Positions 12,634 to 59,194 of a stretch of DNA of 64,000 bases are shown here, piece by piece. The stretch's first letter is position 1. Every line of letters starts with the position of its first letter. The translations under genes and the position numbers were made by a program. Under the pieces are notes generated by a model. That model was not told where the DNA came from and did not search any database. It saw only the letters and a program-made list of their open reading frames with translations. Source of the DNA: Dictyostelium discoideum (lineage: Eukaryota); NCBI GenBank assembly GCA_000004695.1, contig CM000150.2, positions 2,880,001-2,944,000 of the forward strand. The letters run 5' to 3'.

Positions 12634-12668
<35 letters not shown>

Positions 12669-18938: not shown

Positions 18939-19652
18939 TTAATAAAATTCTTCTTTGATAACTAAATCATTTGACCATTGTTGAACGGCCCATTGATTCT
19001 TTTTGATACGATGTCCTCCATATGTGAAATCCATATACATTTCATATGCTGTATTATTACCATCAACGAGTAATTTTAATAATTTTGCTTCATGAATTGT
19101 TGCATTATTTACAAAAGATTCTTCAGCTTTACGATTTGCAGATTTACCAACACGATTAGTTGAATCACCTTTTTCATACATAATTACATCTTGATGATAA
19201 TATTTATCGAATACTTCTAATATTTTATTATCTTGAATACCTTTAATAATTGATTCTAAATTTGATTTGATATTAGTTGATGGTTCTGGTGTTGATGGTG
19301 TTTTAATTTCAACGAATTCTTCTTTAATAATTAAACCATTTGACCATTGTTGGAATGCCCATTGACTCTTTTTGATACGATGTTCGCCATATGTGAAATC
19401 CATAAACATTTCATATGCTGTATTATCACCATCTACGATTGTTTTTAATAATTTTGCTTCATGAATTGTTGCATTATTTACAAAAGATTCTTCAGCTTTA
19501 CGATTTGCAGATTTACCAACACGATTAGTTGAATCACCATTTTCATACATTACAATTTCATCATGATAATATTTATCGAATACTTCTAATATTTTATTGG
19601 TTTGAATCCCTTTAATAACTGCTTCTAAATTTAATTTATTATTTGATGACAT
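18939..19652 (-). CDS. SnoaL/NTF2-like tandem two-domain protein, 237 aa. Copy 1 of 3.
   Basis: Intronless ORF. The protein is an internal duplication of a ~110-aa unit (…ILEVFDKYYHDEIVMYENGDSTNRVGKSANRKAEESFVNNATIHEAKLLK…DGDNTAYEM…FTYGEHRIKKSQWAFQQWSNGLIIKEEF). The pattern fits the SnoaL_2/NTF2-like fold. Confidence 0.6.
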   Translation of the reverse strand: MSSNNKLNLEAVIKGIQTNKILEVFDKYYHDEIVMYENGDSTNRVGKSANRKAEESFVNNATIHEAKLLKTIVDGDNTAYEMFMDFTYGEHRIKKSQWAFQQWSNGLIIKEEFVEIKTPSTPEPSTNIKSNLESIIKGIQDNKILEVFDKYYHQDVIMYEKGDSTNRVGKSANRKAEESFVNNATIHEAKLLKLLVDGNNTAYEMYMDFTYGGHRIKKNQWAVQQWSNDLVIKEEFY

Positions 19653-20454: not shown

Positions 20455-21168
20455 TTAATAAAATTCTTCTTTGATAACTAAATCATTTGACCATTGTTGA
20501 ACGGCCCATTGGTTCTTTTTGACACGATGTTCACCATATGTGAAATCCATATACATTTCATATGCTGTATTATTACCATCAACGAGTAATTTTAATAATT
20601 TTGCTTCATGAATTGTTGCATTATTTACAAAAGATTCTTCAGCTTTACGATTTGCAGCTTTACCAACACGATTTGTTGAATCACCTTTTTCATACATAAT
20701 TATATCTTGATGATAATATTTATCGAATACTTCTAATATTTTATTATCTTGAATACCTTTAATAATTGATTCTAAATTTGATTTGATATTAGTTGATGGT
20801 TCTGGTGTTGATGGTGTTTTAATTTCAACGAATTCTTCTTTAATAATTAAACCATTTGACCATTGTTGGAATGCCCATTGACTCTTTTTGATACGATGTT
20901 CGCCATATGTGAAATCCATATACATTTCATATGCTGTATTATCACCATCAATGATTGTTTTTAATAATTTTGCTTCATGAATTGTTGCATTGTTTACAAA
21001 AGATTCTTCAGCTTTACGATTTGCAGATTTACCGACACGATTAGTTGAATCACCATTTTCATACATTACAATTTCATCATGATAATATTTATCGAATACT
21101 TCTAATATTTTATTGGTTTGGATACCTTTAATAACTGCTTCTAAATTTGCTCTATTATTTGATGACAT
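20455..21168 (-). CDS. SnoaL/NTF2-like tandem two-domain protein. Copy 2 of 3.
   Basis: It is about 95% identical to the copies at 18939 and 22023. The flanking intergenic DNA is also repeated. Confidence 0.6.
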   Translation of the reverse strand: MSSNNRANLEAVIKGIQTNKILEVFDKYYHDEIVMYENGDSTNRVGKSANRKAEESFVNNATIHEAKLLKTIIDGDNTAYEMYMDFTYGEHRIKKSQWAFQQWSNGLIIKEEFVEIKTPSTPEPSTNIKSNLESIIKGIQDNKILEVFDKYYHQDIIMYEKGDSTNRVGKAANRKAEESFVNNATIHEAKLLKLLVDGNNTAYEMYMDFTYGEHRVKKNQWAVQQWSNDLVIKEEFY

Positions 21169-22022: not shown

Positions 22023-22736
22023 TTAATAAAATTCTTCTTTGATAACTAAATCATTTGACCATTGTTGAACGGCCCATTGATTCTTTTTGACACGATGTTC
22101 TCCATATGTGAAATCCATATACATTTCATATGCTGTATTATTACCATCAACGAGTAATTTTAATAATTTTGCTTCATGAATTGTTGCATTATTTACAAAA
22201 GATTCTTCAGCTTTACGATTTGCAGCTTTACCAACACGATTTGTTGAATCACCTTTTTCATACATAATTATATCTTGATGATAGTATTTATCGAATATTT
22301 CTAATATTTTATTATCTTGAATACCTTTAATAATTGATTCTAAATTTGATTTGATATTAGTTGATGGTTCTGGTGTTGATGGTGTTTTAATTTCAACGAA
22401 TTCTTCTTTAATAATTAAACCATTTGACCATTGTTGGAATGCCCATTGACTCTTTTTGATACGATGTTCGCCATATGTGAAATCCATAAACATTTCATAT
22501 GCTGTATTATCACCATCTACGATTGTTTTTAATAATTTTGCTTCATGAATTGTTGCATTGTTTACAAAAGATTCTTCAGCTTTACGATTTGCAGATTTAC
22601 CGACACGATTAGTTGAATCACCATTTTCGTACATTACAATTTCATCATGATAATATTTATCAAATACTTCTAATATTTTATTGGTTTGAATACCTTTAAT
22701 AACTGCTTCTAAATTTAATTTATTATTTGATGACAT
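22023..22736 (-). CDS. SnoaL/NTF2-like tandem two-domain protein. Copy 3 of 3.
   Basis: The N-terminal half matches copy 1 (FMDF). The C-terminal half matches copy 2 (IIMYEKGDSTNRVGKAANRK, GEHRVKKNQ). Confidence 0.6.
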   Translation of the reverse strand: MSSNNKLNLEAVIKGIQTNKILEVFDKYYHDEIVMYENGDSTNRVGKSANRKAEESFVNNATIHEAKLLKTIVDGDNTAYEMFMDFTYGEHRIKKSQWAFQQWSNGLIIKEEFVEIKTPSTPEPSTNIKSNLESIIKGIQDNKILEIFDKYYHQDIIMYEKGDSTNRVGKAANRKAEESFVNNATIHEAKLLKLLVDGNNTAYEMYMDFTYGEHRVKKNQWAVQQWSNDLVIKEEFY

Positions 22737-23198: not shown

Positions 23199-24238
23199 TT
23201 AACATTTATCTAAAGCTTGAGAGATATCAGCTAAAAGATCATTAATATCTTCAATACCAACGGATAAACGAATTAAAGTATCAGAGATACCGAGTTTAGC
23301 TCTTTCTTCAGCTGGAACACTTGCGTGAGTCATAACTGATGGAAGTTCAATTAAAGATTCGACACCACCTAAAGATTCAGCAAGAGCAAAGAGTTTAATA
23401 TTCTCCAAGAAAGATCTGCTTTGATCGATTGAACCTTTAACAAAGAAAACAACCATACCACCATAACCTTTCATTTGACGTTTGCAAATCTCATGTTGTG
23501 GATGAGATGGGAGACCTGGATAGATGACTCTTTCAACTTTTGGATGTTTTTCGAGGAAATTGCAAATGGCGAAAGCATTCTTTTGATGAGCTTCCATACG
23601 AACGTGGAGAGTCTTCAAACCACGAAGGGCGAGGAAACAATCGAATGGTGATGGCACGGCACCAATACTATTTTGGAGGAATTTAAGCTTGGCGTAGAGT
23701 TCATCGTTGTTTGTTGCCAAAACACCCATAACGCAATCACTATGACCATTGATATATTTGGTGACAGAGTGCATAACGATATCGGCACCCAAATCCAATG
23801 GATTTTGGAAGTATGGTGACATAAAGGTGTTATCAACAACCAAAGTAGCACCACGACTGTGAACGTAATCTGCAACTGCTTTAATATCAGCTACTTTTAA
23901 TAATGGGTTGGTTGGTGTTTCAATCCATACTAATCTAGTTTTATCGGTGAATGCATTCTTTAAATCGTCTAAAGTTGAAAGATCGACAAAGCTGAATTTC
24001 AAATCGAAATTGGCTGCAACACGTGTAAAATATCTACGTGTACCACCATAAACATCATCAATTGAAATAACTTCATCACCAGATTTTAATAAATGTGTAA
24101 TTGTTGTAAGTGTTGCTAAACCACTTGCAAATGATAATGCATATTTAGCATTTTCACATGCTGCAATACATTCTTCAAATGCTTTTCTTGTTGGATTACC
24201 TGATCTTGAATAATCATATTCCTTTTGGTTTTTAAAAT

Positions 24239-33780: not shown

Positions 33781-36700
33781 ATGATAAATAAAATTTCTCG
33801 TTTTAAAATATTATTATTGTTTATTTTTATTATTTCATTGACATGTGCTCAAGATGGTAAGTTTTTAATTATTTTCTTTTTTATAAAACATTTGCAAATA
33901 TTGACTTTTTTTTTGAAAAAAAAAAAAAAAAAAAAAAAATTTTAGAGGAATTAATATCAACACCTGAAGGGTATTACGATTTAAAACGGTTTAAAAGATT
34001 TCAACACTATAAAAATATCCAACCCAATGAAGAAGCAGGATATACAGATTTATATTATCCAGATGTTTGTAAAAATGCTATAAGGAATAGAGATGGAGCT
34101 CCAACATTTAATCAGAGAAGCTTTCCAGGTTATACAGGAGTATTCGACACTTTACTAATAACAAAGGGTATTTATCATTGTAAAATTCATAAAAATACAT
34201 CATTTTGAAAAACTTAACATTAACATTTCACCATTATCATTTCATTCAATCAAAGGTACCAATATGACATTGGATTCAACCGGTTTCCTTACTGGTCTGG
34301 GTATCTGGTCACTCTTGACTTTATGTGTTGAAGGAAATTTAACGGTACTTTATAATCCAGATGAATTTTCTTTCGTACCTGTTCATAGGTTAGTTATACT
34401 ACCAGGTGGAACTATAACATCCCATGCAAATTCATTTCTATTCTGGGATACTTACCAAGTTGATGAGAATTTTCAAGAAGAATTAAACAAAAGAGTAAAG
34501 ATTGATCCTTTTAATTTTTTCCCTGGTCTACTAGTCTTGGGAGGAAATTTAAATTTATTTGGTAATAGTCAATTGACTTATACTGCTAAACGATTGAACG
34601 ATACTACATTGGAACTATCAACTCCATTTTTAAATATGAAATTTCTATGGAATAAATATATAATTACAATCTTTACAGAATCAATACCACAAGGTGATGA
34701 TTGTCTTTTTAATATGGATTCAGATAAAAGAACTTTTTACTTAATTAAAACCAACTATGGTACTTGCAATCCATTACGGGAAACAGATAAACTCATGAAA
34801 GTAGTAATCTCATACAACCGATATGAGGATAATTACTCAAGCTATATATCTCTTTTTTCAGATTATTATGGTTTCGAACCAAATGAAGCTTCTATTTTTA
34901 TAACAGGTGATTCAAATGTCTATATTGAAAATTATCTTATTAAAAATTTAGGCAAAACAAAAAATAATGCATACAGTGATACAAAATTAATATTTTCACC
35001 AAATAATACAAGTGAAGTTATAGGGTTTATAAATGGTACCAATCAAAGATTTAGAAGTTCTTTATATATAGAGTTTTCAAATAATGTTATCATTAAAAAT
35101 TGTGTAATTATAGAATCTTCTTCAGAAACAAGATCACCGTTAGTATTTTTTGGTTCAAACGTATATTTATCAGATAATTTAATTTCAAGTAAATCTGGTT
35201 CAAGTTTAATAGCACAATATGGAACTGAAAATATTCAATCTATAAATAATTTTTATTTTCAAAAAGGTGTTTCACATCAAACTGCCTCTCAAATATTAAA
35301 TCCAATTAATATGGATTTTGGAAATGAAGGAAATGGCATTTATTCAGTATCACCAAATCTTTTATCAAGTGATGATTTTTTTATTGGTCAAAATTATTCA
35401 ATTACTTTTAACTTTATTGCCAATAGGTCAAAAATTACTGGTTTTGATCAAGATTGTTATGCACCATGTTTTAGTGATTCAATCAATTTTTCAAATAAAA
35501 TTCAGTATCCTGTAGATTTTAAAATTTTTAATCCAAAGTTTTTACCAACAAATAATACCAATAGCGATTGGTATATTTTAAATATAAATGATAATGGAAA
35601 TCAACCAGGTACCTATTATACAGTAAAAAATTTAACAACTTTAGATCCCGTACAGTTTTCATTGGATAATAGCGCTTTATCCTTTTTAGGTCTAGAAGCA
35701 AGTGAAAATTTTAAAATGAATGGTAATGCCAAAAGATTGGATATTGTTAATTCAATTATCAGTTCAAAAGCTTTAACCAACCAACAACAAATAATTTCAA
35801 AAGTTTCATCATCAGCTATTAGCTTTAAAAATTCTTATATATACAGTAAATTAGGTCAACAAATTACACCTATAGATAATCAGATTTATGGATCATTAAT
35901 TACACCATTTTATTATAATGATTCAGATATTTTAAATCAAGTTAAAATTTTATCAATTTTTCCCAATGTCCCTTTTCAAATTGTATCAGGTTCTATATTA
36001 AATGTTAGCATAAACCTTCAAATTATTTCAACGGCTGATATTTCATGCACTTTCTCTTCAGATAATTCTACTTTTAGTACAACAATTTTGGTTAACCCAT
36101 CAGACGGAAGTTGTGTTTTACCACTTGTTTTTGAAAAAGAAGGTTATTTTAATTTAAAAGTCACATTAAAGATTTCAACATCAAAGGATTATTATTATAT
36201 AGTTGATTTTCCAAAGATTACAGTATATAATGAATATTTATTTTATTCAGGATGGGTAATGATTGATTCAAGCACAGATGAATTTCTATTTGAAGGTAAA
36301 ATATTTAAATCAGGTTGCCAACAACAGGTATTAGGTAATTGTACAATATCAACAAATTCAAAGTTTATAAATGGCTTGCCAAATGTAACAGAAACAGATG
36401 AACTTAATAGATTATTTTCAAGTGGTATAACATCAATCAATCCATATGAACCTGTGACAATTACAATACCAATTGATAAAGAATCAAAAAAGAATCAAAT
36501 CCAATTATTTTTTACTCACCAACCAATTGATATAGAATATAGTCTATTATCAATATATGTAGAAAATCAACCAATATTCCTTTTAGAACAATTACAAAGT
36601 GGTTTAGGTTCAACATTTAAAAATTTAACATTTAATTATGAAAATTCAAAATCACTAGAAATAATCAACATTTCTTTCACAACAAGAGGTGATATCTATT

Positions 36701-37675
36701 TAACTTCAATGGCGGTTTATTCATCAGCCATCCCAATAATCGTTACACCAACACCAACATCAACAACATCAACACCAACACCAACATCAACAACAACATC
36801 AACACCAATTCCGACAACAACACCTACAACAACACCAAAAACATCAAAAACAACCTCCAAAAACAAATTAAAAATTGCTTTACCAATTTGCCTTTTTGCT
36901 CTTTTGGTTGCTGTTGGAGTTTTAATATGTTTTATTTTCAGAAAAAAAAAACAAAAGAAACAAAAATTAGATAATAATATGGAGGATGGAAGTGAGATGT
37001 CTTCAATTAAAATTAAAAAAGAAAATTATAATTCTTTTAACAAGTTTAAAGAGTCAACAGTATTTAAAAACGATGATTTTAAAAATTATTCCAATCCAAC
37101 CGAAACAACAATTTATAGCACTTCCGATTCACTTTTAAACTTTGTTGGCTCTGACTTTTTAAATTACTCTGACCCAAACATCCCCTTATCCTTTAGTAAA
37201 AATATTTTAGAATTTGGATTAAAAGGTTCAAAATGCGATATCAATACCTTCCTTTCCGATTCTTTACGAATAACAAATAACTCTAATATTATATTATGTA
37301 TTTGTACAGTTCTTCCAAGAAATGACTCTGGTGAAGTAAGAATTTTTTGTTTTTTTATTATTATTATAATGAATTTAATTAACTAATCAATAATGAATTT
37401 TTTTTTCAGGTAAATGTTAGTCCAGATTCTTTTGAATTAGATCCAAATCAATCAAGAGAGATAGAATTTTCTTTAAAGTTAAATTGCACAACAAGAGTAG
37501 GTTGAATTTTTATAATTGAATTATTATAATTTAGTTAATATATATACTAACTGCACATCTATTTATATCCTAGTTTTTTGAAAGATTTGCTATTGAGGCT
37601 AGACATACTCACAGTTTCAAGTCAATTCACACTCACCTTTTCATTCATGTTGAATCTAAGATTTCCTCTAAAGTA

Positions 37676-37713
<38 letters not shown>

Positions 37714-38690
37714 GATTTTAACTTAACTTTTCTTTAGTTGGATATAAAAGAGATTGAAGTTAAAGAATTGATTTCACAAAATAATTTATCAACTGTTAAT
37801 ATAGCAAATTATAGAGGTTTACAAGTTGTTTTGAGAAAGATTAAAACTCATAGCGCAAATTACACCAAAACTTACTCTCAAGCAATCAAAAAATTCTACA
37901 CAGAAATGGATATACTCTCAAAGTTAAAAAACAAAAATATTGTTTCATTTATTGGTTGCACTCACGACTCTTCTCACCTTTGGATTGTTACTGAATATGC
38001 ACCATTGGGATCTCTTAGTTCTCTTATCCATCAAAAGAAAGAAAAACTTTCATTAATTCAAAAAGTCAAGTAAGTAAAAAAAAAAAAAACAATAATATTA
38101 TAATTTAGTTCTTTTTTCTAATATTATTAATAGGTTAATGTTAGATACAGCAAAGGGGTGTGAATTTCTACACTCAAATGATATTACGAATTGTAATATA
38201 AAATCAAATAATTTATTACTCTTTTCAACAATGGAAAAAGATGATGTTTGTGTAAAAATTTCAGATTTTGGTATAAAAAGTAATTATTATTATTTTTTAA
38301 ACAATTGTTATTTTTTATACAATGATTATTTCTAACTTTTTACAAAAAAAAAAAAATAAATAAATAAAAATAGAATTTGAAGTACAAAACCAAAATGAAA
38401 AAGAAATTTTTAAAGATGAAAAAGATCAAAAGCTAATTGATGTTTATGAATTTGGAATTACATTCTATGAAACAATGCTTGAAGAAACTCCAGAAAACCT
38501 ATCTAATTTAATATTGGAAGGTGAGAGACCAACTCTTGATTTGGAAAAATTAGATGCAGACATTAGAAACATAATTGAAAGATGCTGGAACCAAAACAAA
38601 AGGTCAACATTTTCAGAGATTAGTATTTCACTAAAAGAAAAATATACAAAATTGTTGGAGAAAAATAATGAATTAATACAAGAGAATTAA
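33781..38690 (+). CDS. Receptor-like protein A: signal peptide, parallel beta-helix ectodomain, transmembrane helix, degenerate cytoplasmic pseudokinase. Eight exons.
   Basis: Exons are 33781-33856 ([25 protein letters not shown]), 33946-34167, 34256-37335, 37410-37496, 37574-37672, 37738-38069, 38134-38279 and 38374-38690. The ectodomain has PbH1-like repeats (…[18 protein letters not shown]…[21 protein letters not shown]…[12 protein letters not shown]…). A T/P-rich stalk leads to the TM helix [23 protein letters not shown]. The kinase-like region keeps subdomain II-V remnants (VVLRKIK…[20 protein letters not shown]…[13 protein letters not shown]), the DFG (ISDFG) and [11 protein letters not shown]. 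It lacks the Gly loop and the HRD catalytic loop ([12 protein letters not shown] instead). Confidence 0.7.
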
Positions 38691-38769
38691 TTTAAAAACT
38701 AACAATAAAAACAAGATAATTTATTATTATCTATGAAATTAGAAATATTTTTTTTTTTTAAATTATTGT

Positions 38770-38945
38770 TAATATTATTTGGATTACTACAAATGATATT
38801 AAAATAGAGATAGTAGATTTAGAGTTAATAGTAGGTGAAGCTGCAATTAAGTGTTAAACACTATTATTATTTGTTGTAGTTGTTGTCGATTTACTTGATT
38901 TTACAACTGGTTGGAACTCCAGATGTTGTACCGTTTGTAATGGAA
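38770..38945 (-). pseudogene. Truncated 3' fragment of a GPI-anchored surface-protein gene, paralogous to 42116-42300.
   Basis: 38760-38940 aligns almost base-for-base with 42110-42300, including the reverse-strand region that encodes the hydrophobic tail ...ISILISFVVIQIILTII* and the S/T-rich stalk. It then diverges, and no upstream ORF follows. Confidence 0.55.
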
Positions 38946-39136: not shown

Positions 39137-41830
39137 ATGAAATTAGGACAAAGGATATTTATTTTGATATGCTTAGTTATCAACTCTTTCTCTAATTGTA
39201 AGTCAACAATTAATTAAATATTATTCATTTTTTTATTAAAAAAAAAAAAAAGACTAAAAAAAAAAAAAAAAAAGGCAGTCTTGTGGTTTCACCAAATGGT
39301 TATTATAACATTTATCGAGAAAATAATTTTGGGAATATTTTAAATTTAAAGCCAACAGCAGAAAACAAATTACAAGATTCATATTATCCAGGTGTTTGTA
39401 GCAATGCAGGAAAAAATAAAGATGGTGTGACTAGTTTTTTAATATCCTCTTTCTCTATTTTTTTTTATAAATTACATCAACGTTATTGTTACAAAAGGTA
39501 TGTAAAATTTTATTTTAAATAGAATCATATTATGAAATATAAAATATTAACCAAATGCAATTAATTAACCAATTAGGTTCACATATGGTATTGGGAGATT
39601 TGGAATATTCTAAAATGAGTAATGTTAGAACTTTATTGAATATAGTTTGTGTTGAAGGCTCATTATTATTTTCAACACAAAGTGTTTTATATATGAGTGT
39701 CTTGGTAATGTTACCTGGTGGTAGTTTTGAATGTTTAGATTGCACAATTCGTTTTCGTGAACTACATCCAGCAAGCTCTCAGATCGATCCATTTGGTTTT
39801 TTCCCTGGTGTACTTGCTTTAGGTGGCTCGTTATCTCTTATTGGGAAGCAAAAAACTACATATTCTGCGACCAATATTGGTGGAAATATATTAGAGGTTC
39901 CAGATCTTTCAACATTAGATAGTTTCAATGGTTACAGTTTATCAATATTTAGTGAATCATTTCCTTTGGGAAAATCTTCAACCTTTTCCCATTATTTAAA
40001 TCGAATAAGTGTATTAGATTTGGTTATTCCGAAAACAGATAAAAATATAAGAGTCTTCTTTAATCCAAATTTTTCATTTTTCAACTCAGACAAAATCAGA
40101 TACCGCTTCAATTCATATCACAGGAAATACCAATGTATATAGAAAATTTTTACATCAATTCTTTTGGAAAGACTTCAAATGATCAATATAGCGATACAGA
40201 ATTGGTATTCTCACCTGATGATCCAAATTTAATTACAGAGTTTATAAATGGTAACAAAGATTTAGAAATTCATTATATATAGAGCATTCAAATAATGTTA
40301 CTATAAAAAATAGCGTTATACTTGAAACAAAAGAAACAAGATCACCATTAGTAATTTTTGGTTCAAATGTAAATATATCAGGTAATATAATATCAAGTAA
40401 TTCTGGTTCAAGTATTACAGGATTTGATAAAGATTGCTATTCACCATGCTATAATGATTCGATAAGAGTTTCAAGTAAAGTTCAACATTTATTAGTTCAT
40501 CAAATTACTCTGAGTTTTCTTTTTAGAATCAGCGAAACAGGTAGTAAACAAAGTTCAATTTATAAAATAAAAAATTCAAATTTAAGTTATCCAATTTCAG
40601 TATTATTAGAAAACAACGCATTTATATTAGATAATGTTTATGGTTTTGGTGATTTTAGTAATAATGGTATGATTAAAAGATTTGATATAATAAACTCAAC
40701 ATTAGATCCTTCTGCATCATCATCAATAAGTTTAAACAATTTTTCAAAAGCAATTTGTATTCAAAACTCATTTATGGATTTTAAATCATTTCAAAAACAA
40801 AACAATCAATTATTACACCTTACCTATACTATTTCGAAAATACAATGAATCTTATAAAAGTATCAAAAATGTATCCAAATGTAAACCATCAAATTTTAGC
40901 AGGTACAGTACTAAATATGGGTATTGAAATTATAATTATAGCACCATTATTTGGGAAAATGGATTGCATATTTGAAGATGAAAGTAGTGTTCAAACAATA
41001 CCATTTGATAAATCAAGTAATTCATGTGTTTTACCATACACATTTAAAAATGAAGGTTCATTTAATGTACGAGTTACATTATCACTAAATAACTCTGGAG
41101 ATAGTGTATTTCAAGTATATTTTCCAATGGTTACAGTATTTAATATATTCATTTTATTCAGGATGGGCAATGATTGATTCAAATATAGAAAAAGAAATAA
41201 TAATAGATGGTAATATATTTAAAAAAGGTTGTCAACAACAGGTATTAGGTAATTGTACAATATCAACAAATTCAAAGTTAATAACAGGTTTACCAAATGT
41301 GACAGAATCAGATGAACTTAATAGATTATTTTCAAGTGGTATAACATCTATCAACCCATATGAACATGTAACAATAACAATACCAATTGATAAAGAATCA
41401 AAAAAGAATCAAATCCAATTATTTTTCACACTAACCAATTGATATAGAATCTAGTCTATTATCAATATATGTAGAAAATCAACCAATATTCCTTTTAGAA
41501 CCATTACAAAGTAATTTAGATTCAACATTTAAAAACTTAACATTTCATTATGAAAATTTAAAATCTCAAGAAATAATCAACATATCTTTCACAACAAGAG
41601 GTGATATCTATTTAACTTCAATGGCGGTTTATTCATCAGCCATACCAATAATCGTTACACCAACACCAAAAACATCAAAAACTACCTCCAAAAACAAATT
41701 AAAAATCGCTTTACCGATTTGCCTTTTTGCTCTTTTGGTTGCTGTTGGAGTTTTAATATGTTTTATTTTAAGAAAAAAAAAAAACAAAAATTAACTAATA
41801 TTATGGAAGATGGAAGTGAGATGTCTTCAA
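39137..41830 (+). pseudogene. Receptor-like kinase pseudogene B: multiple frameshifts, in-frame stops, internal deletions and loss of the kinase exons.
   Basis: The signal exon MKLGQRIFILICLVINSFSN and the next exon (VSPNGYYNIYRENNFGNILNLKP…) match gene D. The track splits the body into broken ORFs at 39555-40142, 40845-41177 and 41104-41442, with the stop 'tatatatag' at ~40270. About 230 bp are deleted relative to D between '…SGSS' and 'ITGFDKDCYSPCYND'. The C-terminal stalk and TM (…[15 protein letters not shown]…[23 protein letters not shown]) instead match gene A. Only a short kinase 3' remnant (~41990-42050, …NELTQEN*) survives. Confidence 0.7.
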
Positions 41831-42115
41831 TTAAAATTAGTGTTTCACCTTTATCCAACTTGGGATAAAAAATGTTTTTTTTTTTTTTTTTTGATTACTA
41901 CCTTTTCAGTCCTTATTTTTTTTTGCGATCCAAAAAAAAAATTAAAAAATAAAATTCGGATTACAAATTAAAAAGGAATTTGTTTATCTTAAAGAAAAAT
42001 ATATAAAACTGTTTGGGAAAAGTAATGAATTAACACAAGAGAATTATTTTAAAACTAACAATAAAAACAAGATAATTTATTATTATCTATGAAATTAGAA
42101 ATATTTTTTTTTTTT

Positions 42116-45100
42116 TTAAATTATTGTTAATATTATTTGGATTACTACAAATGATATTAAAATAGAGATAGTGGATTTAGAGTTAATAATAGGTGAAGCT
42201 GCGCTTAAGTGTTCACCACTATTATTATTTGTTGTAGTTGTTGTCGAAGAGTCTGTTGATTTACTTGATGTTTCAACTGGTGCGCCAGTTGTTGTACCGC
42301 TTGTAATTGGAATTGAATAAGGAATTGTATTATTTGAAAAAACTTCAATACCGCACATTGGTATTGAGTACTTGAGATTATCAGATGCCCACTCAATCAT
42401 GAGTGTAACATCAGTTGAACCACTATTCCAATAGAATGGCCCAAATTTTTGATATTTTTGATAAGGTGAAGAAGGTCTTGAGTATGGATCTTGATATTTG
42501 CCATTAATCTTAATTGTGAAAATGGGTAGTGAGTTGACGATGTTGGCTCCAGTGTAATCTGCATTATAAGAGTAGATGAAAAACTTGTATTCTGCATTTG
42601 CTGGTAAAGTTAAATTTACTGAACTTTTAATTCCTAATGTAACATCATTTGATAAATAAGATGTTAACATTGATACTTCATCAGTTGCGCTTCTGATAGT
42701 TCCAGTTGTAGATTCAGTTACCGTTGATGGAATTGGTGATACTTTACTGTATTTACCAGTTACCTTACATATTCCACTAATCCAACCACATTTAGTCCAT
42801 TGGTTGCCTAAAATTGATAGTGCTTTGGAAGATGAACTAAAATCTGGAGTTAAATCTATACCAAGGTAAAACAATTGAACACCAGAATCAACTATATAGG
42901 TTTGAGCATAATATGGTCCAACAATAGATGGATCATTTGGAGCATATAATAGATTGGATGAAACAATAACTGTATAAGGTCCATTAGCTTTTGGGAAATT
43001 GGCAACCTTGGAAATAGGAGAAGCACTTGAAGGGTAATCTATTGATTGAATTACTTCGTTTACAATATATTCTATATTTTGATTTGAACCTAAAAGGTAA
43101 TCGACGTTTGGTTTAAATGATAATAAAAGTTGATTTGAAGTTATTGAATTTACCATTGGGTTAAAATTATATAATGGATATAAACCAAGGACCCCTTCAA
43201 ATATATCTAATTTTGTACCATTTACATTAGAAAGGTATAGCTGTGTGGTATATTTCTTTAAGAATAAAGATGAACTAGAATAATGAGAGAAGAGAGAGTT
43301 TTTAATTGATAAATAACCACACGAAAATGTTTCAGAAAAGAAAACATAATTTCCTTTGGCAATGGAATTAACAATTGATATCGCATTGTATTTGCCATTT
43401 AGAGTGTTTGGAGCATTAGTAAATACTTTCTCATTTGAAGATAGAGAGTTTGCAATATATGGAGAATCATAAAAGATTTCAATGTTTGCTTGGTTTCCGG
43501 TTGAACCAAGAGTTAATGATGGTTGCTGTCGAATATACCAACCAAATTTTATATTAATTTTTAGTGGGGGTTGAGTTCCAATTGGATATCTAACACGTAC
43601 TTCAGTTTCACCTGCAAAGAAATTACTCAAAAAAACAACATTGTTCCAAACATTATTAGTTTTGTAATCAGCAGTGTTATCTTGAGTTAATCCAGAGTGT
43701 ATACCTATCAGTTTATCTGATGCTAAACCCAATGTTGAATATCTACTTTGAATTGGGATTACATGAATTGCACCTCCTTTGAATTTACCTTCAAATGCAT
43801 TTCCTTCATATGTAGAGTAGGGTGATGATGTTATTATACCAACATTTATATAATCTATGTCTGGATAGGTTCTATATGATGAAACTATGCTGGTATCCGA
43901 GTATAAAGAAATGAACCCATTATAGCTAATATCAAATTGCTCTGTTCCATATAATAATGAAATACCACTGATACCTTTTCTCAATGCAAATGCATTACCA
44001 GATATTGTACCAAATGAACGTTTAGCACCAATAAAAGCTCTTGGGATTTCACTTTCTCTTAAAGTATCAATGTAGTCATAATCCATGAACATATTATTCT
44101 TAATATTTACTGCTTCTTTATTATGTAATAAAGTTATTGGATATCTATCAGGTATATTTTTTCCATATTTAAGAACATTATAGTTTGAATTTAATATATT
44201 ATCATCGAGAACATTGCTTGTTGTATGTCCAATATCATAAAAAACACTGTTTTGAATATTAACAATCGATCCAAGAGTAAAAGTCATTGAACTATTATAA
44301 AACCCTTTGATAAATACATTTTTAGACCAAGGTCTCATTACAATATAACCACTTCCACCAAATATTTCTCCTATTATTTCACTTGGGGATGCTGCGATAG
44401 CACTAGTATAATATTGATCCATTGAATAATTAATATTGTAATTTGGATCATAACTTCCACTCATTCTAAATAAAGGTAATCCTGGACTTGAATAAGAAAA
44501 AGGAGTACGGAGGAATGAACCTCCATAAGAACCAGATTTTGATGTGTTCCTTCCTGCCCATATTGACTCAGTGTTAAAACCAATAATGTTAACTGTACCG
44601 CCCAAGGAGATAAAAGGAGATGTTTGAAGAGGATCCCAAGATGGGAAATTCCAATATTCAAAAGCGGGTAAAAATATTGTGTGATTAAAACTTGAAGATG
44701 GTTTTGATTCAAATACACCAGTTGGGAATATAATTGTTTTGGAGACTGTGTAATATGTATTAGCATTTGGATCAAGAACCAATTTTCCTTTAATAATAAT
44801 TGTATAAAGCCAACTGACTCTTCCATAAAACGTAACTGTTACTCCTTCTGGAATAACCAAAACATTTTTTAACAATAATAAACTTCCTGAAGGGTTTTCG
44901 TTAATGTTTATTGGTGGTGTAAATAAATCAGTGGTAAGAAAGTTTGTGTCACTATATATTGTGCAACTTGATTTGAAAGTGTATTTTACTGTATTTGGAT
45001 TTGACTCCAAGTCTGGATAAAAATCACCTTTGTAGTTTGGGTTTTCTGGATAAAAATTAATCTTGAAATGTGGCTGCCCATTAATATTTACACGTGGAGA

Positions 45101-45271
45101 GTTCCAATCGAATGAATAAAGTTCTTGAGAGTAAGTTTCTTATTTTTTTAAATTTATTAAGATTAGTAAATCTATAGGGAAAAAAAAATAAAAAATAAAA
45201 ACAGAAAATTTTAAATAAAAGTATATACTCTGATATAATATAATGACCAGCGTAACTAATAACTTTATCAT
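42116..45271 (-). CDS. Large secreted GPI-anchored cell-surface protein, about 1000 aa, Ser/Thr/Asn-rich, 2 exons.
   Basis: Exon 1 (~45229-45271) reads ATGATAAAGTTATTAGTTACGCTGGTCATTATATTATATCAGA, giving the signal peptide MIKLLVTLVIILYQ, with a GTATAT donor. Exon 2 (42116 to ~45123) is the 964-aa track ORF extended upstream (…KLYSFDWNSPRVNINGQPHFKINFYPENPNYKGDFYPDLESNPNTVKY…). The C-terminus is an S/T-rich stalk (…TTGAPVETSSKSTDSSTTTTT…) followed by a hydrophobic tail ISILISFVVIQIILTII*. That arrangement is typical of a GPI-attachment signal. Confidence 0.65.
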
Positions 45272-46041: not shown

Positions 46042-49000
46042 ATGAAATTAGAACAAAGGATATTTTTTTTAATATGCCTAGTTATCAACTCTTTCTCTAA
46101 TTGTAAGTCTACAATAAATTTATTTAATATTTTTCACATTTTTACTAACCTTTTAAAATAAAAAATAAAAAAATAAAAAATAAAATAATAAAATAATAAA
46201 AAAAAGGTAGTCTTTTGGTTGCTCCAGATGGTTATTATAACATTTACCGAGAAAATAAAATTGAAAATATTTTAAATTTAAAACCAAATGGTAACAAATC
46301 ACAAGATTCATATTATCCAGATGTGTGTAGTAAAGCGGTAAAAAATAAAGAAGGTGTAAAAAGTTTTATCTTATCTTCATTCCCTCTTTCAACTAAAGAG
46401 TATGCTAACGTTATTGTAACAAAGGGTATGTAGATTTTATTTTTATTTTTTATAGTAAATTATAGTATATTTATAAATATTAACAATAAGCAATTAATTC
46501 CTAGGTTCACATATGACATTGGGTGATGGAGAATATCATCAAATATTTAATATCAATAGATTTTTGAATATAGTTTGTGTTGAGGGTTCACTTGTATTTA
46601 GTACAAAAGATGTTGTATATATGAGTGCGTTGGTAATATTACCTGGTGGTAATTTTGAATGTATAGATTGCACCATCAAATTTCGAGATCTATATCCAAC
46701 CAACTCATTAATTGACCCATTTGGTTTTTTACCTGGAATTATTACTTTGGGAGGTTCATTATCTCTTTTAGGAAAGCAAAAAACTGTGTATAGTGCAGTT
46801 TTAATAGATGAAAATATATTAGAGGTTCAGGATATTTCATCACTAGATATTTTCAATGGTTATAGTTTATTTATTTTTAGCGAATCATTTCCTTTGGGAA
46901 AGGCATCAACTTTTACTTTTAATTCAAATCAAATAAAAGTTTTGGAAATCAAAATACCAAAAACAGATAAAAGCATTAGAGTATTTTTTTATTCAAGATT
47001 TTCTACTTTCTCAACTTCAACTACTGCTTCAATTCATATCACAGGTAACTCAAATGTGCATATCGAAAACTTTTATATAGACTCTTTTGGGAGGACAACA
47101 AACGATCAATATAGCGATACAGAATTGATTTTCTCTCAAGATGATCCAAATTTAATTACTGGGTTTATAAATGGTAGCAATCAAAGATTTAGAAGTTCTT
47201 TATATATAGAGCATTCAAATAATGTTACCATAAAAAATAGTGTTATACTTGAAAATAGAGGAGAAACAAGATCACCATTAATATTCTTTGGTTCAAATGT
47301 AAATATATCAGGTAATATAATATCAAGTAAATCTGGCTCAAGTTTAATAGCGCAATATGGAACTGAAAATATTCAATCAACAAATAATTATTATTCATTA
47401 TCTTTACCACTTTTAAAATCATTAAATTCAACTCTTGATAGTATGGATTATGGAAATGAAGGAAATGGTATTTTTTCGATATCGCCAAAAATAAATTCTA
47501 TTAATGATATATTCAATGGGCAAATAATAGCAATCAATCATATAATATTATCAGATAGATCAAGTATTACAGGATTTGATAAAGATTGCTATTCACCATG
47601 CTATAATGATTCGATAAGAGTTTCAAGTAAAGTTCAACATTCAGTGGAATTTAAAATAACAGGATCAACATTTATTAGTTCATCAAATTACTCTGAAAGT
47701 AGTTTTCTTTTTAGAATCAGCGAAACAGGTAGTAAACAAAGTTCATTTTATAAAATAATAAATTCAAATTTAAGTTATCCAATTTCAGTATTGTTAGAAA
47801 ACAATGCATTTATATTAGATAATGTTTATGGTTTTGGTAATTTTACAATTAATGGTCTTATTAAAAGATTGGATATAATAAACTCAACATTAGATCCTTC
47901 TGTAACATCATCAATAAGTTTAAGCAATTTTTCAAAAGCAATTAGTATTCAAAATTCATTTATGGATTATAGATCATTTCAAAAACAAAACAATCAAATC
48001 TATGGATCAATTATTACACCTTACCTCTACTATTTCGAAAATACAATGAATCTTATAAAAGTATCAAAAATGTATCCAAATGTAAACCATCAAATTTTAG
48101 CAGGTACAGTACTAAATATGGGTATTGAAATTATAATTATAGCACCATTATTTGGGAAAATGGATTGCATATTTGAAGATGAAAGTGGTATTCAAACAAT
48201 ACCATTTAATAAATCAAGTAATTCATGTGTTTTACCATACTTATTTAAAAATGAAGGCTCATTTAATGTACGAGTTACATTATCACTAACGAAATCTTTA
48301 GATAATATTATATTTCAAGTATATTTTCCAATGGTTACAGTATTTAATATATATTCATTTTATTCAGGATGGGCAATGATTGATTCAAATATAGAAAAAG
48401 AAATAATAATAGATGGTAATATATTTAAAAAAGGTTGTCAACAACAGGTATTAGGTAATTGTACAATATCAACAAATTCAAAGTTAATAACAGGTTTACC
48501 AAGTGTAACAGAATCAGACAAACTTAATAGACTATTTTCAAGTGGTATAACATCTATCAACCCATATGAACCTGTAACAATAACAATACCAATTGATAAA
48601 GAATCAAAAAAGAATCAAATCCAATTATTTTTCACTCACCAACCAATTGATATAGAAACCAGTCTATTATCAATATATGTAGAGAATCAACCAATATTCC
48701 TTTTAGAACCATTACAAAGTAATTTAGATTCAACATTTAAAAATTTAACATTTCATTATGAAAATTCAAAATCATTAGAAAAAATCAAAATTACATTTAT
48801 AACAAGAGGCGATATTTATTTAACATCTACAGCGATTTATTCATCAACTAACCAACCTATATATAACGAAGTTATTGGTATAAATGAACAATTAAATATA
48901 TTAGCAATTGTACTACCAATAACGATTTCATTGTTTGCAGCGGCATCAATATTGGCTGGTTATTTAGTAATTAAAAAATATAAAAAACCAAACATGTATT

Positions 49001-50199
49001 ATAATAGAAATACCAATGGAAATATCGGAATGAAGGTTTTCTCAACAAAATTTAAAAGAAGACCCAAAAAGGTAATACCACTTTCAATCCCATTAAGTAC
49101 AAATAGAATTACAAAGAAATCATTACAATCTTTAGATTCAATGGCTGAAAACCCTGTGATATTACTTTCCATTCCAGAATTGGAGAAAGCCAATGAACCA
49201 GAATTTAATCCTGAAAAAACTTTCTTACAAGAATCAGAATTATTAGATTTACCAACACCAAAGGTAGAACCAGAAGAGCCAAGAATTAATATTGTTCCCC
49301 TCCCTCGTTTTCCAACCGTATATAAAAAAGAAGATAACGATAAATTATTAAAAGAATTGAATATAACTGGTCCTATCACCTCTGAAAATATTGAATCATT
49401 CTTTGAAGTTGATGTTGGTTTGCCATCTTTAATAATAAAGAATGAATCTGAAATCATTCTACAAGAAATTGATTATATTGAAACTGGTGAAATTCAAGAA
49501 ATGGAAGGTAGCTTTTTGGAAGATAAATCAACTGATACAACCGTTATAGTAACAAAAAGTGATGGTTTACCTAAATTTTTTCAAACCAAAGTCTTTTCCA
49601 AACGATTTAATGATATATCCAAATTTGATAATGATTTCTTTGATCTAAAGGAATACATAGTTGAACATCAAGAAGAATCTTTTGAAATACCTTTTATGAC
49701 CTCGGAAGATGAAGTAGATGAAACCAAAATTAATATAATAGACTTTTTACTCAGTCCCAAATCTAATAAAGTTGCACTAAATATGTATTTAAAATCATTT
49801 CAAAATAGAAACCATAAACTTTGTTATGGAAAGTATGGTTCAAATAAAAATTCTATTCTTGTTATTGAAGGCACATCTTATTATTATGATTGTACAGATG
49901 TTAGGTTACCAATATCAACACCTCGTAGTAATCTTAATTTTGGAATAACAGATGGTAATAAATGTATAGTTGATAGAAAATATAGAGAAAGGTTACAATA
50001 TATAAATGTTTATAGTGAACCATTTAGAATTTATACTCTTTTTCCAGATAGTAATGATAATGTAACAATTACAACTTCAGAATGTTGTAAAGAAATAGAC
50101 CCATTTGGTTCATTAGATGTAGATATATTTGTAACTTTAAAAACAACAACCAAAGTAAGTATTTTAAAAAAAAAAAAAAAAAAAAAAGAATTATAAACT

Positions 50200-50230
<31 letters not shown>

Positions 50231-51347
50231 CATAAAAAAAACATAATAATAGTTTAATGAAAAAGTTACAATTCGTTATGAAACTGATGATAAAGAATTA
50301 GCATTTTCAACATTTGTTTATTTAAATTTAGAGAGTCAAGTATCATCAAAAATTGATTTTGATGAAATAGTTCTCGAAAAATATTTATCTGAAGGTTCAT
50401 TTGGAGTTGTATATAGTGCTATTTGGAGATCATCATCAGTTGCGGTCAAATTATTCAAACATCATTATTCTAAAGATGAAATTGATAAAGAAACATCAAT
50501 TTTATCAAAAATAAAACATCCAAATATAGTTTCATTCATTGGAAGTTTAAATTTTTTAAATACATATGGTATTGTAATTGATTATCATCCAAGAGGTTCT
50601 TTAAATTATTATACTCGTAATCAAAATATTAAACTATCAATGGTACAAAATATTAGGTATGTAATAATTAAAATATTATTATTTATTATTATTATATTAT
50701 TTATTAATTTTTTTTTTTTTTTTAGGATTTCATTGGATATTTCAAGAGCTTGTTCATTTCTTCATAAAAATGGTATTATTCATCGAGATTTAAAACCAGA
50801 TAATGTTTTAATTGTTTCATTTGATCCAGATTCTTCAATTTGCGCAAAGATATCAGATTTTGGTACTTGCAGAGGTATGTTTTTTTTTTTTTTTTTTTTT
50901 GATATATTCAAATTTTTTTTTTTTTTTTTGAATTCAACTAACTATTTTTGTTTTAAATTAAAAAAAGAAATTAATGGAAAGCATGAATTAAACTCAAAAG
51001 CTGGAACAACACGTTATATGAGTCCAGAAATTTTAGAAGGTCTTCCATATACATATTCTACAGATGTTTATTCTTTTGCAATCCTTTTCTTTGAATTACT
51101 TTCCGGAAGAGTACCATTTAGAGAAATTCCAAAAAGAGAAATTCCAAGATTTGTACGTTTAGGAACAAGACCTCGTTTAGATCAAGATGTATTTGCCGAT
51201 AATGATATATCATTAATTTTATTAGCTTGTTGGAATCCAAATCCTCGTGGTAGACCAACATTTGATACTTTAATAGATTTATTAGAAAAATTATTAAAAA
51301 AATATAAAGAAAGAGCAAAAAGAAATAAAAAAAATCAAAATCAATAA
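46042..51347 (+). CDS. Receptor-like kinase D: signal peptide, beta-helix ectodomain, transmembrane helix, intact cytoplasmic Ser/Thr (TKL-like) kinase. Six exons.
   Basis: Exons are 46042-46102 (MKLEQRIFFLICLVINSFSN), 46207-46425, 46505-50154, 50253-50656, 50726-50874 and 50968-51347. The TM helix is ILAIVLPITISLFAAASILAGYLVI. The kinase is intact: GSFGVVYSA (Gly loop), VAVKLF (beta-3 Lys), HRDLKPDN, DFG, GTTRYMSPE and DVYSFAILFFELL. The ectodomain is ~60-70% identical to gene A. Confidence 0.75.
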
Positions 51348-51464: not shown

Positions 51465-52514
51465 TTAATTACAAAAAGGAATTTTTAAAGTTGATCTTAA
51501 AATTAAATTACTTAATTGAACAATTACAACTTCAGGTTTTATTATTGGAATAAAATGAGTTGAATAAATTGAAAATTGAAAAGAGTTTTTTGATAATTTT
51601 GATAATTGATGTTGTCTTGAAACCCAAGATTCTGTATCATTAGAATTTGAAACAACCACCATTGGTAAATTACCTAATGGATTATTTGGAATTGATGAAG
51701 AATTAAATAATTCATCTAATCTTTGAGAACTTGATGTTAATGTAGACAATTCTTGATGTAAAGCTTTTAACATATTTTGATTTGGGTTTGTAATAATTTT
51801 TTGAGTAATTTCAATTGATGGAAATATTAATTTCGAATTATTTGTAAACCAACCTTGATCTTGAGTTAACATACCCTGACCACATATTAATTTAAACATA
51901 TCATTTGGTAAACTAATTACTGATTCTAATTGTTGAATTTGATTTTCAAGTTGACTATTGAATAAAGGATCGATATAATTTCTAAATGAACTATCAATAG
52001 TTAATATACCTTTTATTAATTGTGGATATTTCATAGAAAACATTTGAGCATTTAAACCACCATATGACCAACCAACATAAAAAAATCTTTTATTTTTTAA
52101 AAATGGTATTAAATCAATGGATTGTTTTAGCATTGAAACAAAATTTTCAACGCCAAGTGGTTCAGGTGAAAGATCTGACCATCCATAACCATATCTATCA
52201 AAGAAACATGCACTCTCGATACCCATTGCAGACATTACTTCTTTTTTTGACATTAATTCAATAACATTACCATATGCGGAAGAAAAGAAAGGAAATCCGG
52301 AATCAAAAATTGCAATTTCACCCTTTGAAAAATTTGGATCTTGATTTTTATAACATCTAAAATGCATTTTTAAACCATTAACCATTGGAAAGTAACTTAC
52401 ACCTTTATCATTTTTTCCAATTAAATTTGGTAATGGATAATTTTCATTCATTTGATTATTTGAAAAACAATATTTAATATTACAAATTAAAAATAAAAAT
52501 AAAATAATTATCAT
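51465..52514 (-). CDS. Secreted alpha/beta-hydrolase fold protein, a lipase/esterase-type.
   Basis: The likely start is the internal Met, MIIILFLFLICNIKYCFS, a signal peptide. The nucleophile elbow GWSYGG fits G.S.G. The rest of the ORF has an AB-hydrolase-like layout. Confidence 0.6.
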   Translation of the reverse strand: MIIILFLFLICNIKYCFSNNQMNENYPLPNLIGKNDKGVSYFPMVNGLKMHFRCYKNQDPNFSKGEIAIFDSGFPFFSSAYGNVIELMSKKEVMSAMGIESACFFDRYGYGWSDLSPEPLGVENFVSMLKQSIDLIPFLKNKRFFYVGWSYGGLNAQMFSMKYPQLIKGILTIDSSFRNYIDPLFNSQLENQIQQLESVISLPNDMFKLICGQGMLTQDQGWFTNNSKLIFPSIEITQKIITNPNQNMLKALHQELSTLTSSSQRLDELFNSSSIPNNPLGNLPMVVVSNSNDTESWVSRQHQLSKLSKNSFQFSIYSTHFIPIIKPEVVIVQLSNLILRSTLKIPFCN

Positions 52515-53203
52515 TTTTTTTTTTTTATTACAAAAAAAAAAAAAAAAAAAATTAATATACAAATAAAATAAAATAAATAAATAAATAAATAAAATAAATA
52601 AAATTAATATATATAAATAAAAATTAATATATAGATGATTATATATATAAAATATACAAAAATAAATAAATTTTTAATTTAAACAATTACATAAAAATAA
52701 ATTAATTAAAATTAGTAATAATAAAAAAATAAATTTTAGATATTTTTTTTTTTTTTTTAAATAATAGATAAAATTTTAAAAATAAAAAAATAAATTATTA
52801 ATAATAATAAAAAAAAAAAAAAAAAAAAAAGAAAAAAAACTATTAATAGAATCTTTTAAATTATTTTGAACAGAAAGATTAAACAATGATTTTTTTATTA
52901 TTGTTATTGTTGGAAAGATTTATTTTTTTTTTTTTTAAAATTTGAGTGCATCTATTTTTGAAAATTTATGATTTTTTTTTTATTTATAAATTTACACAAA
53001 TATATTGATATAAAATGAAATTTAATTTGAATCATAATACTACCCCTTTAATAATTTTTTTTTTTTTTTTATTATCAGGGAATGATGATGCAATAAATAA
53101 CATTTAAAAAATTGGTGAGACCAGAAATAAAAAATTGAGAAACAAAACAGTGTATCTGTTAATGGGTGAGTGTGGTTTAAATTATTACTGTTAATATTTA
53201 TTT

Positions 53204-53711: not shown

Positions 53712-59194
<5,483 letters not shown>

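Follow-up and report, generated by a model that had tools for sequence, protein, structure and literature searches.

In human TMEM2, the G8 'domain' represents the first turns of one continuous beta-helix, and domains of the beta-sandwich and lectin-like type come after it (PMC10206443). One report describes TMEM2 as a hyaluronidase of the cell surface (PMC10474455); this activity is disputed, and the active site of both CEMIP and TMEM2 is undefined (PMC10206443). A second group of surface proteins important for the present work are the Gdt receptor kinases of Dictyostelium discoideum, whose extracellular domain is highly conserved, was regarded as unique in 2006, was described by an in-house profile and is presumed to detect starvation ligands (2006 kinome paper, PMC1420674). 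Gdt1 and Gdt2 exert negative control over the growth-differentiation transition, and cells lacking gdt2 or gdt4 show lower sensitivity to extracellular polyphosphate (PMC8262924). Here, we analyzed the gene DG1041, which is located next to gdt4 in a window of 64,000 nucleotides of D. discoideum DNA (assembly GCA_000004695.1, contig CM000150.2, positions 2,880,001 to 2,944,000 of the forward strand; all coordinates below are those of the window). On balance, DG1041 is probably a glycosylphosphatidylinositol (GPI)-anchored surface protein recognizing an extracellular glycan via a beta-helix and a module resembling malectin and carbohydrate-binding modules (CBMs), although this reading is favoured by a modest degree of confidence only.

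DG1041 is encoded by two exons (Table 1). The codon at the splice is split, with one base contributed by exon 1 and two by exon 2, and the frame is then open to give 1,021 codons. An exact-sequence look-up demonstrated that the spliced product is the same in every residue as DDB_G0269126 / XP_646033.1 / UniProt O15733, the D. discoideum AX4 entry named 'Uncharacterized protein DG1041'. The two-exon model of an earlier reading of this DNA from the letters alone (the original prediction), which had been drawn by eye, is thus exactly the reference model; its description of the protein as 'novel' has to be withdrawn, as the gene is already annotated.

The original prediction had assigned DG1041 to no recognizable family. 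By profile and fold comparisons, its N-terminal half now falls into the G8/CEMIP-type beta-helix superfamily, and the C-terminal part includes a malectin/CBM-like beta-sandwich. Searching 1.84 billion representatives with the DG1041 family profile yielded 94 proteins at an expectation value (E) of E<=1e-3. The matches outside the dictyostelids had E-values of 3e-12 to 1e-9 and were located at profile positions ~105-430. All eight such proteins scanned carry Pfam G8, CEMIP_beta-hel (PF24606) or both, with best Pfam E-values of 1.7e-21 for G8 and 2.1e-17 for CEMIP_beta-hel. Profile positions ~105-215 align to the Pfam G8 regions of P0074, P0075, P0077, P0082 and P0084, so that the homology to bona fide G8 proteins on the profile level covers the G8 region itself. 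Comparing the DG1041 family with an alignment of 16 G8/beta-helix proteins by hhalign resulted in a probability of 99.7% (E 2.1e-25, 403 columns). The bacterial-type multidomain G8 proteins (P0074-P0092) contain an N-terminal beta-helix homologous to DG1041 over ~400 residues and share with it the motifs DPxQ, G(R/H)TT, DD(T/N), GxN, RYP and GxGI....G(T/V)E. Both are extracellular and carry accessory beta-sandwich domains after the helix. The accessory parts differ, as those of DG1041 are a malectin/CBM-like module, a Ser/Thr stalk and a GPI signal, and in contrast to canonical G8 proteins DG1041 remains below the Pfam thresholds. Accordingly, the curated G8 profiles (PF10162 / PROSITE G8) did not recognize it, whereas the UniRef label of the D. 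purpureum family member reads 'G8 domain-containing protein'.

The structural models are consistent with these profiles. The AlphaFold2 (AF2) model of DG1041 has a predicted template modelling score (pTM) of 0.77, and a right-handed parallel beta-helix runs on continuously from the G8 region. A full-length Foldseek search against the PDB gave TM-scores of 0.1-0.2, values diluted by the multidomain query, and pointed to FERONIA/CBM35 and tailspikes. DG1041 is a divergent member of a known fold class, and the fold is visible in its public model. As far as we checked, explicitly placing DG1041 in the G8/CEMIP beta-helix superfamily goes beyond the existing annotation.

A separate model of residues 575-960 (predicted local distance difference test, pLDDT, 78.7) matched carbohydrate-binding modules. 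The matches were modules of the malectin/CBM57/CBM35 type, the best ones being CBMs attached to glycosidases. As the aligned lengths were 141-169 residues, the match comprises one of the two beta-sandwiches present in this region; it probably belongs to the second one, which contains the conserved WTKCxW..C pair. The limits of the first beta-sandwich were derived from DSSP strings and not from coordinates. No FAM3/POMGNT1-type chain was present among 60 listed structure matches of the C-terminal model, and no Pfam match of this kind was obtained either. Thus, the GG (FAM3/POMGNT1-like lectin) domains found in and after the helix of CEMIP/TMEM2 were not detected in DG1041. Nevertheless, human TMEM2 (CEMIP2; PDB 8C6I) and CEMIP (KIAA1199) follow the same general plan as DG1041, are likewise found at the cell surface and pose the same question of enzyme or binder (PMC10206443). 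Neither of them gave a direct sequence match to DG1041, the family profile included, and TMEM2 is anchored by a type II transmembrane segment, whereas DG1041 carries a GPI-type signal. Hyaluronan is not known in Dictyostelium, and the ligand of DG1041 must therefore differ from that of TMEM2.

Whether the beta-helix of DG1041 binds or cleaves its presumed ligand was evaluated from conserved motifs. In 16 canonical G8/beta-helix proteins DPxQ, GRT, G.N, RY, HxHH, a further His, GxG, E.G.E and N are invariant. The canonical sequences read GRTT..DDT..GTNQxGRYPLHxHH and GxGI.EDGxE, the corresponding regions of DG1041 GHTT..DDN..GKN.PDRYPITLLH and SGISLLYGTE. The DG1041 family retains DPLQ, G(H)T, G.N, RYP, G.G, the Asn, the last His and, within an invariant YGTEQ, the second Glu. 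Other residues occupy the first acidic position and two of the three His of the cluster, so that HxHH is reduced to one His and the ED pair before G-x-E is lost. Consequently, the conserved polar cluster RYP(L/I)HxHH ... H ... EDGxE is not present in DG1041. This loss suggests a binding, pseudo-enzyme-like role rather than catalysis, and we consider such a role about twice as probable as an active enzyme.

An active polysaccharide-degrading enzyme at the cell surface, that is, a beta-helix acting as hydrolase or lyase with the CBM/malectin-like module for targeting, is a less likely alternative. Such an enzyme could act in feeding, by trimming capsule or cell-wall glycans of bacteria, or in development, by remodelling the matrix or slime sheath. 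The fold class consists mostly of glycoside hydrolases, lyases and epimerases, a catalytic beta-helix combined with a CBM is the classic layout of an enzyme, and the glycosidase-attached CBMs among the best C-terminal matches would agree with it, as would the many invariant acidic and basic residues inside the beta-helix region and the hyaluronidase activity reported for TMEM2 (PMC10474455). On the other hand, the DG1041 family has other residues at most of the canonical invariant positions (HxHH, H312 and E334 of A7), no Pfam match to any CAZy-type family was obtained, and even for TMEM2 the activity is disputed and the active site unassigned (PMC10206443).

Both ends of the protein carry the features of an anchored surface protein. 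The N-terminus reads MIKLLVTLVIILYQKTYS up to the predicted cleavage site and QELY after it, with a basic start, a hydrophobic core of 10 residues and small residues at -3 and -1. In the family, the N-terminal consensus is a variable hydrophobic stretch followed by SQE(L/I)Y. The signal peptide proposed for the 43-nt exon is therefore supported both by the shape of the N-terminus and by the junction kept in paralogues. Comparative data also support the intron: the orthologue of D. cf. discoideum (93% identical) shows an in-frame indel of 3 nt in exon 1 and a non-triplet indel of 4 nt in the intron, and the acceptor directly 5' of the SQE(L/I)Y codons as well as the intron position are kept in two paralogues. 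Three Logan contigs of ~3.6 kb containing the DG1041 open reading frame (ORF) include the intron and are colinear with genomic DNA; they were consequently rejected as transcripts and do not inform on splicing.

The most hydrophobic segment of DG1041 is its C-terminal end of 17-20 residues (ISILISFVVIQIILTII; mean Kyte-Doolittle hydropathy 2.2). The last 15 residues are uncharged, and the segment ends the protein with nothing after it. SAA/AAS at 993-996 provide small candidates for omega, omega+1 and omega+2, with a spacer of 5-9 residues before the hydrophobic end. DG1041 thus displays the complete GPI-type pattern of signal peptide, small triplet, spacer and tail-less hydrophobic end. This assessment was rule-based and complemented by conservation across the family. 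The pattern is kept in most tail-bearing relatives, the close ones showing the triplets LSAAS, LNAAS, LSVAS, SSGAS and NSSAP; in P0063, P0064, P0066 and P0068, which are more distant and presumed to be dictyostelid, the hydrophobic end alone is kept. Composition and conservation in paralogues are thus in agreement with the hydrophobic GPI-like tail originally proposed, and DG1041 is probably GPI-anchored, a conclusion well supported by rules and conservation. Removal of signal peptide and GPI signal leaves a predicted product of ~975 amino acids (aa), close to the 'about 980 aa' estimated before. That the hydrophobic end stays in place as an ordinary transmembrane anchor, with no exchange for GPI, or that the gene is a decaying duplicate without present function (see below), is very unlikely. 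Cytosolic residues and stop-transfer charges are lacking in DG1041, while the transmembrane segment of the neighbouring gdt protein is, by contrast, followed by RKKK.

The hydrophobic end is preceded by a stalk in which the best 30-aa window consists of 60% Ser/Thr. Its pLDDT is <50, and it is predicted to be disordered. In this respect the original prediction was borne out, but the 'many N-glycosylation sequons' it had listed were not: DG1041 contains 8 N-x-S/T sequons compared to 17.4 +/- 3.6 expected from composition-preserving shuffles, and 8 or fewer occurred in 0.3% of the shuffles. This depletion may reflect selection against glycosylating the folded beta-helix. A heavily N-glycosylated mucin-like protein was ruled out, as sequons are depleted and the Ser/Thr stretch comprises just ~38 aa. 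A GPI-type anchor on a stalk is also typical of adhesins, and some family members are secreted forms without an anchor, as would suit a cell-cell or cell-substrate adhesin that acts via protein-protein contacts and uses the beta-helix just as a rigid scaffold, like bacterial autotransporter adhesins. However, both the C-terminal module and the families homologous to DG1041 are related to carbohydrates, known adhesion proteins of Dictyostelium showed no homology to it, and the conserved pairing with receptor kinases of the same ectodomain type (see below) points to sensing, which makes such an adhesin improbable. The functional class given in the original prediction, 'adhesion or recognition protein', is still reasonable, with the domains pointing specifically to carbohydrate recognition or processing.

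Based on these findings, glycan recognition by DG1041 can be pictured as follows. After cleavage of the signal peptide, the mature protein would begin with the divergent G8/CEMIP-type beta-helix, a fold known from pectin-lyase-like polysaccharide hydrolases and lyases and from TMEM2/CEMIP, followed by two beta-sandwiches, at least one of them predicted to be malectin/CBM-like, a short stalk of potentially O-glycosylated Ser/Thr and the GPI signal. The most likely ligand of the beta-helix groove and the CBM-like module would be an extracellular polysaccharide or glycoconjugate, with the surfaces of bacterial prey and Dictyostelium's own matrix as candidates. Since the gene is kept beside gdt genes encoding a homologous beta-helix ectodomain, DG1041 may act in the same extracellular sensing pathway as the Gdt kinases.

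The relationship to the Gdt kinases was evident on the level of profiles. Aligning the DG1041 family with the Gdt ectodomain family by hhalign gave a probability of 94.7% (E 6e-8, 395 columns), and the Gdt ectodomain family was matched to the bacterial-type G8 proteins with a probability of 98.3% (E 2.1e-14). The hidden Markov model (HMM) of the Gdt ectodomain matches the G8 protein P0074 over ~360 residues, with GRTT..DT..GTNQR.R and YGTE / G.E in common. When DG1041 was compared with two gdt ectodomains by direct BLASTP, the matches fell short of significance (E 0.19 and 0.32), and the kinship thus rests on profile-profile comparison. By this measure, the DG1041 family and the Gdt ectodomains are both divergent G8/beta-helix ectodomains; as far as we checked, such a placing of the Gdt ectodomain in the G8/CEMIP beta-helix superfamily also goes beyond the annotation. 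The Gdt kinases (gdt1-gdt9) share the YGTE motif with DG1041, but the C-terminal half of their ectodomain showed no match, and unlike DG1041 they possess a transmembrane helix and a cytoplasmic tyrosine kinase-like (TKL) kinase or pseudokinase. The idea that DG1041 is a recent tandem duplicate of a gdt ectodomain was rejected because neither family is closer to the other than to the bacterial-type G8 proteins, to which each is at least as close.

The original prediction had noted that position and orientation relative to the receptor kinases are conserved across the duplication units. This holds far beyond the window. Six other loci of the DG1041 family from the D. discoideum group and D. purpureum were scanned with the Gdt ectodomain HMM, and a gdt-type gene was detected within 5 kb at all six, bringing the paired loci to seven. 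The arrangement is head-to-head at five of the six. In the window, DG1041 lies head-to-head with gdt4 and tail-to-tail with a gdt pseudogene. The orthologous locus L004 (P0001) shows both neighbours, the tail-to-tail one being a kinase-less protein of 733 aa, and both are also present at L001 (P0014, with a tail-to-tail gap of 21 bp) and L002 (P0009). At L008 (P0017) and in D. purpureum (L003, P0020) the head-to-head partner was found and the tail-to-tail one was not. The exception is L009 (P0024), where neither arrangement occurs and a kinase-less gdt-type gene is located ~5 kb upstream on the same strand. As far as we checked, this conserved gdt/DG1041 gene pairing is new beyond the annotation. 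Across the 7 loci, pairwise identity among the DG1041-like proteins correlates with that among the upstream Gdt partners (r = 0.81, leaving out the orthologue pair; the pairs are non-independent), which weakly fits a co-duplication of the two genes.

Pairs of a receptor kinase and a GPI protein occur in plants, for example the malectin-like receptor-like kinase (RLK) FERONIA with LLG/LORELEI or the LysM-RLK CERK1 with CEBiP/LYM. The FER-LLG2 structure 6a5e was also among the structure matches of the DG1041 models. The logic is similar in that a GPI-anchored extracellular binder is found beside a single-pass receptor kinase and a malectin-like fold is present, and in the LysM pairs the two partners also have homologous glycan-binding ectodomains, the fold being LysM there and a beta-helix in DG1041. 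The likeness is one of analogy without homology, and gdt and DG1041 are known here as gene neighbours. In a speculative and rather doubtful extension, DG1041-type proteins, whether secreted or held by a GPI anchor, would serve the adjacent Gdt kinases as co-receptors or as decoys.

Several observations weigh against DG1041 as an anchored, non-catalytic glycan-recognition protein. A Pfam scan of DG1041 yielded no family at E<=1, CAZy-type families included, and scanning 29 family members gave weak G8 (PF10162) matches in six of them (best E 0.0031). Moreover, neither phmmer with DG1041 nor hmmsearch with the family profile found anything among PDB sequences even at E<=10, and because of these missing Pfam and PDB sequence matches the superfamily membership rests on profile-profile and fold evidence. 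The loss of HxHH is no proof of lost activity, since the catalytic site of CEMIP/TMEM2 is undefined. In addition, many polar residues are invariant within the family itself (among them D316, E414, D441, E464, R480, E525 and E527 in full-length numbering; H319, R346 and H353 are invariant as well), and it is the acidic ones that keep the enzyme alive as an explanation. Regarding the anchor, twelve members (P0016-P0019 and P0021-P0028; ~40% of the family) end after the last beta-sandwich without stalk and tail. These would be secreted, and the family would thus consist of anchored and secreted forms. The adjacency to gdt genes can persist by co-duplication alone without functional coupling. Finally, a literature search found no paper naming DDB_G0269126, DG1041 or DDB_G0269850.

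The gene itself is clearly maintained. Comparing DG1041 with its D. cf. discoideum orthologue (P0001), we obtained a nonsynonymous rate (dN) of 0.032, a synonymous rate (dS) of 0.151 and a dN/dS of 0.21; for the paralogues and the D. purpureum homologue, dN/dS was 0.25-0.40. DG1041 is under purifying selection and is a functional gene. A word-indexed search retrieved 28 relatives, every one from Dictyostelium species. At E<=1e-30, the exhaustive search with the profile yielded 14 representatives; the four of these that were inspected (E 1e-66 to 1e-116) are homologous over their full length of 1,008-1,114 aa. The gene model P0060 (1,901 aa) apparently contains two tandem DG1041-family copies fused in one.

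A reading of DG1041 as a decaying duplicate might be supported by its surroundings, as the neighbouring gdt copy and a paralogue at 38.7 kb have decayed and the locus does lose genes. The intact ORF over 1,021 codons and the dN/dS of 0.21 rule out a pseudogene, and every sampled species of the D. discoideum group has kept an orthologue, as has D. purpureum. The fragment at 38.77-38.95 kb described in the original prediction is real. Positions 38631-38945 are 88% identical to 41988-42312, the 3' end of DG1041, over 330 nt (blastn), the alignment containing an insertion of 4 nt and a deletion of 12 nt, and the translated match is 87% over 30 aa, corresponding to DG1041 residues 984-1013 (tblastn). 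Because of these indels and since nothing alike was found further upstream, this relic is the 3' end of a deleted paralogue that lost ~3.6 kb. Its stop is located ~70 bp from the stop codon of the gene at 33948-38690, which is 49% identical to gdt4 over the ectodomain (tblastn), also has kinase exons and is probably gdt6 (DDB_G0270544). The gene gdt4 was recognized by 100% identity of the ORF at 46513-50196 to DDB_G0270550 (P0029), and its kinase domain lies in the ORF at 50640-51347. The gdt pseudogene on the other side of DG1041 can be aligned to aa 1-921 of gdt4 apart from a missing stretch at aa 361-448, its frame changes repeatedly and no kinase domain is left; in D. cf. discoideum it corresponds to the annotated kinase-less protein of L004. 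Of the kinase gene from which the pseudogene derives, the last ~20 codons survive at 41988-42050; this remnant was recognized by comparison with the end of the ORF 38475-38690, and the DNA alignment runs on through this stretch. As unit A lacks a DG1041 copy and unit B lacks the kinase, the locus is a tandem array of units, each with a gdt gene and a DG1041-like gene in tail-to-tail orientation, that underwent reciprocal decay: A kept the kinase and B kept DG1041. A 64-nt match of 78% between 42056-42118 and 50662-50724 was set aside as AT-rich chance similarity.

Table 1. Features of DG1041 and of the neighbouring gdt genes (positions in the window)
Feature	Position	Strand	Description
DG1041 gene	42116-45271	minus	two exons, 1,021 aa
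DG1041 exon 1	45271-45229	minus	43 nt; reads ATGATAAAG...TATCAGA; codes for ATG and most of the signal peptide, MIKLLVTLVIILYQ plus first base of K15
DG1041 intron	45228-45139	minus	90 nt, GTATAT...ATAAG (GT..AG), very AT-rich
DG1041 exon 2	45138-42116	minus	3,023 nt including TAA stop; remainder of the protein
G8/CEMIP-type right-handed parallel beta-helix	43457-45076	minus	residues ~36-575; motif GHTT..LDDN..GKN.PDRYPITLLHN and invariant YGTEQ
First C-terminal beta-sandwich	42845-43402	minus	residues ~594-779; all-beta in both AF2 models; fold type unspecified
Second C-terminal beta-sandwich	42335-42823	minus	residues ~787-949; invariant WTKCxW..C pair; probably malectin/CBM-like
Ser/Thr-rich stalk	42206-42319	minus	residues ~955-992 (~38 aa)
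GPI-attachment-like signal	42119-42205	minus	residues 993-1021: SAAS, spacer PIINSKST, hydrophobic end ISILISFVVIQIILTII
gdt4 (DDB_G0270550), receptor-like TKL kinase	46042-51344	plus	head-to-head with DG1041, ~770 bp between start codons
gdt pseudogene	39137-41788	plus	tail-to-tail with DG1041; tblastn frames and ORF fragments
gdt kinase remnant	41988-42050	plus	last ~20 codons (LKEKYIKLFGKSNELTQEN); in the 3' untranslated region (UTR) of DG1041, beside the stop
Intact gdt-family receptor kinase gene, unit A	33948-38690	plus	3' end adjoins the relic
3' relic of deleted DG1041 paralogue	38695-38945	minus	last ~60 codons with indels, and 3' UTR

The window as a whole is AT-rich, with ~30% GC in coding stretches and ~15% in spacers. 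Three tandem ORFs of 237 aa on the minus strand (18939-19652, 20455-21168 and 22023-22736) each contain two matches to SnoaL-like (polyketide-cyclase-like) domains, which looks like a local triplication. A long ORF on the plus strand (10987-14331) shows the odd combination of Nup160/Nup120 domains and a CcmE-domain match (E 1.7e-9, residues 898-973). Ordinary housekeeping context is represented on the minus strand by a PHD-finger protein of 1,691 aa (53886-58961), a fragment of a Cys/Met-metabolism pyridoxal phosphate enzyme (23199-24002) and an alpha/beta-hydrolase (51465-52562), which also follows gdt4 in the orthologous locus of D. cf. discoideum (L004).

With the assignment to the G8/beta-helix class, the 'uncharacterized protein' DG1041 becomes a testable candidate for glycan recognition, and the Gdt kinases, regulators of the switch from growth to development, gain a recognizable extracellular fold. 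With a beta-helix as ectodomain, polysaccharides or other extended polymers become possible Gdt ligands. If the co-receptor proposal is true, the conserved head-to-head gene pairs would represent an amoebozoan system of receptor kinases and receptor-like proteins built on a common G8/beta-helix glycan-binding ectodomain. The system would detect a polymer outside the cell, for instance a bacterial glycan or another polyanion, and thereby control the growth-to-differentiation transition. The gdt/DG1041 pairs allow a simple genetic test of such a receptor/co-receptor relation in a tractable organism.

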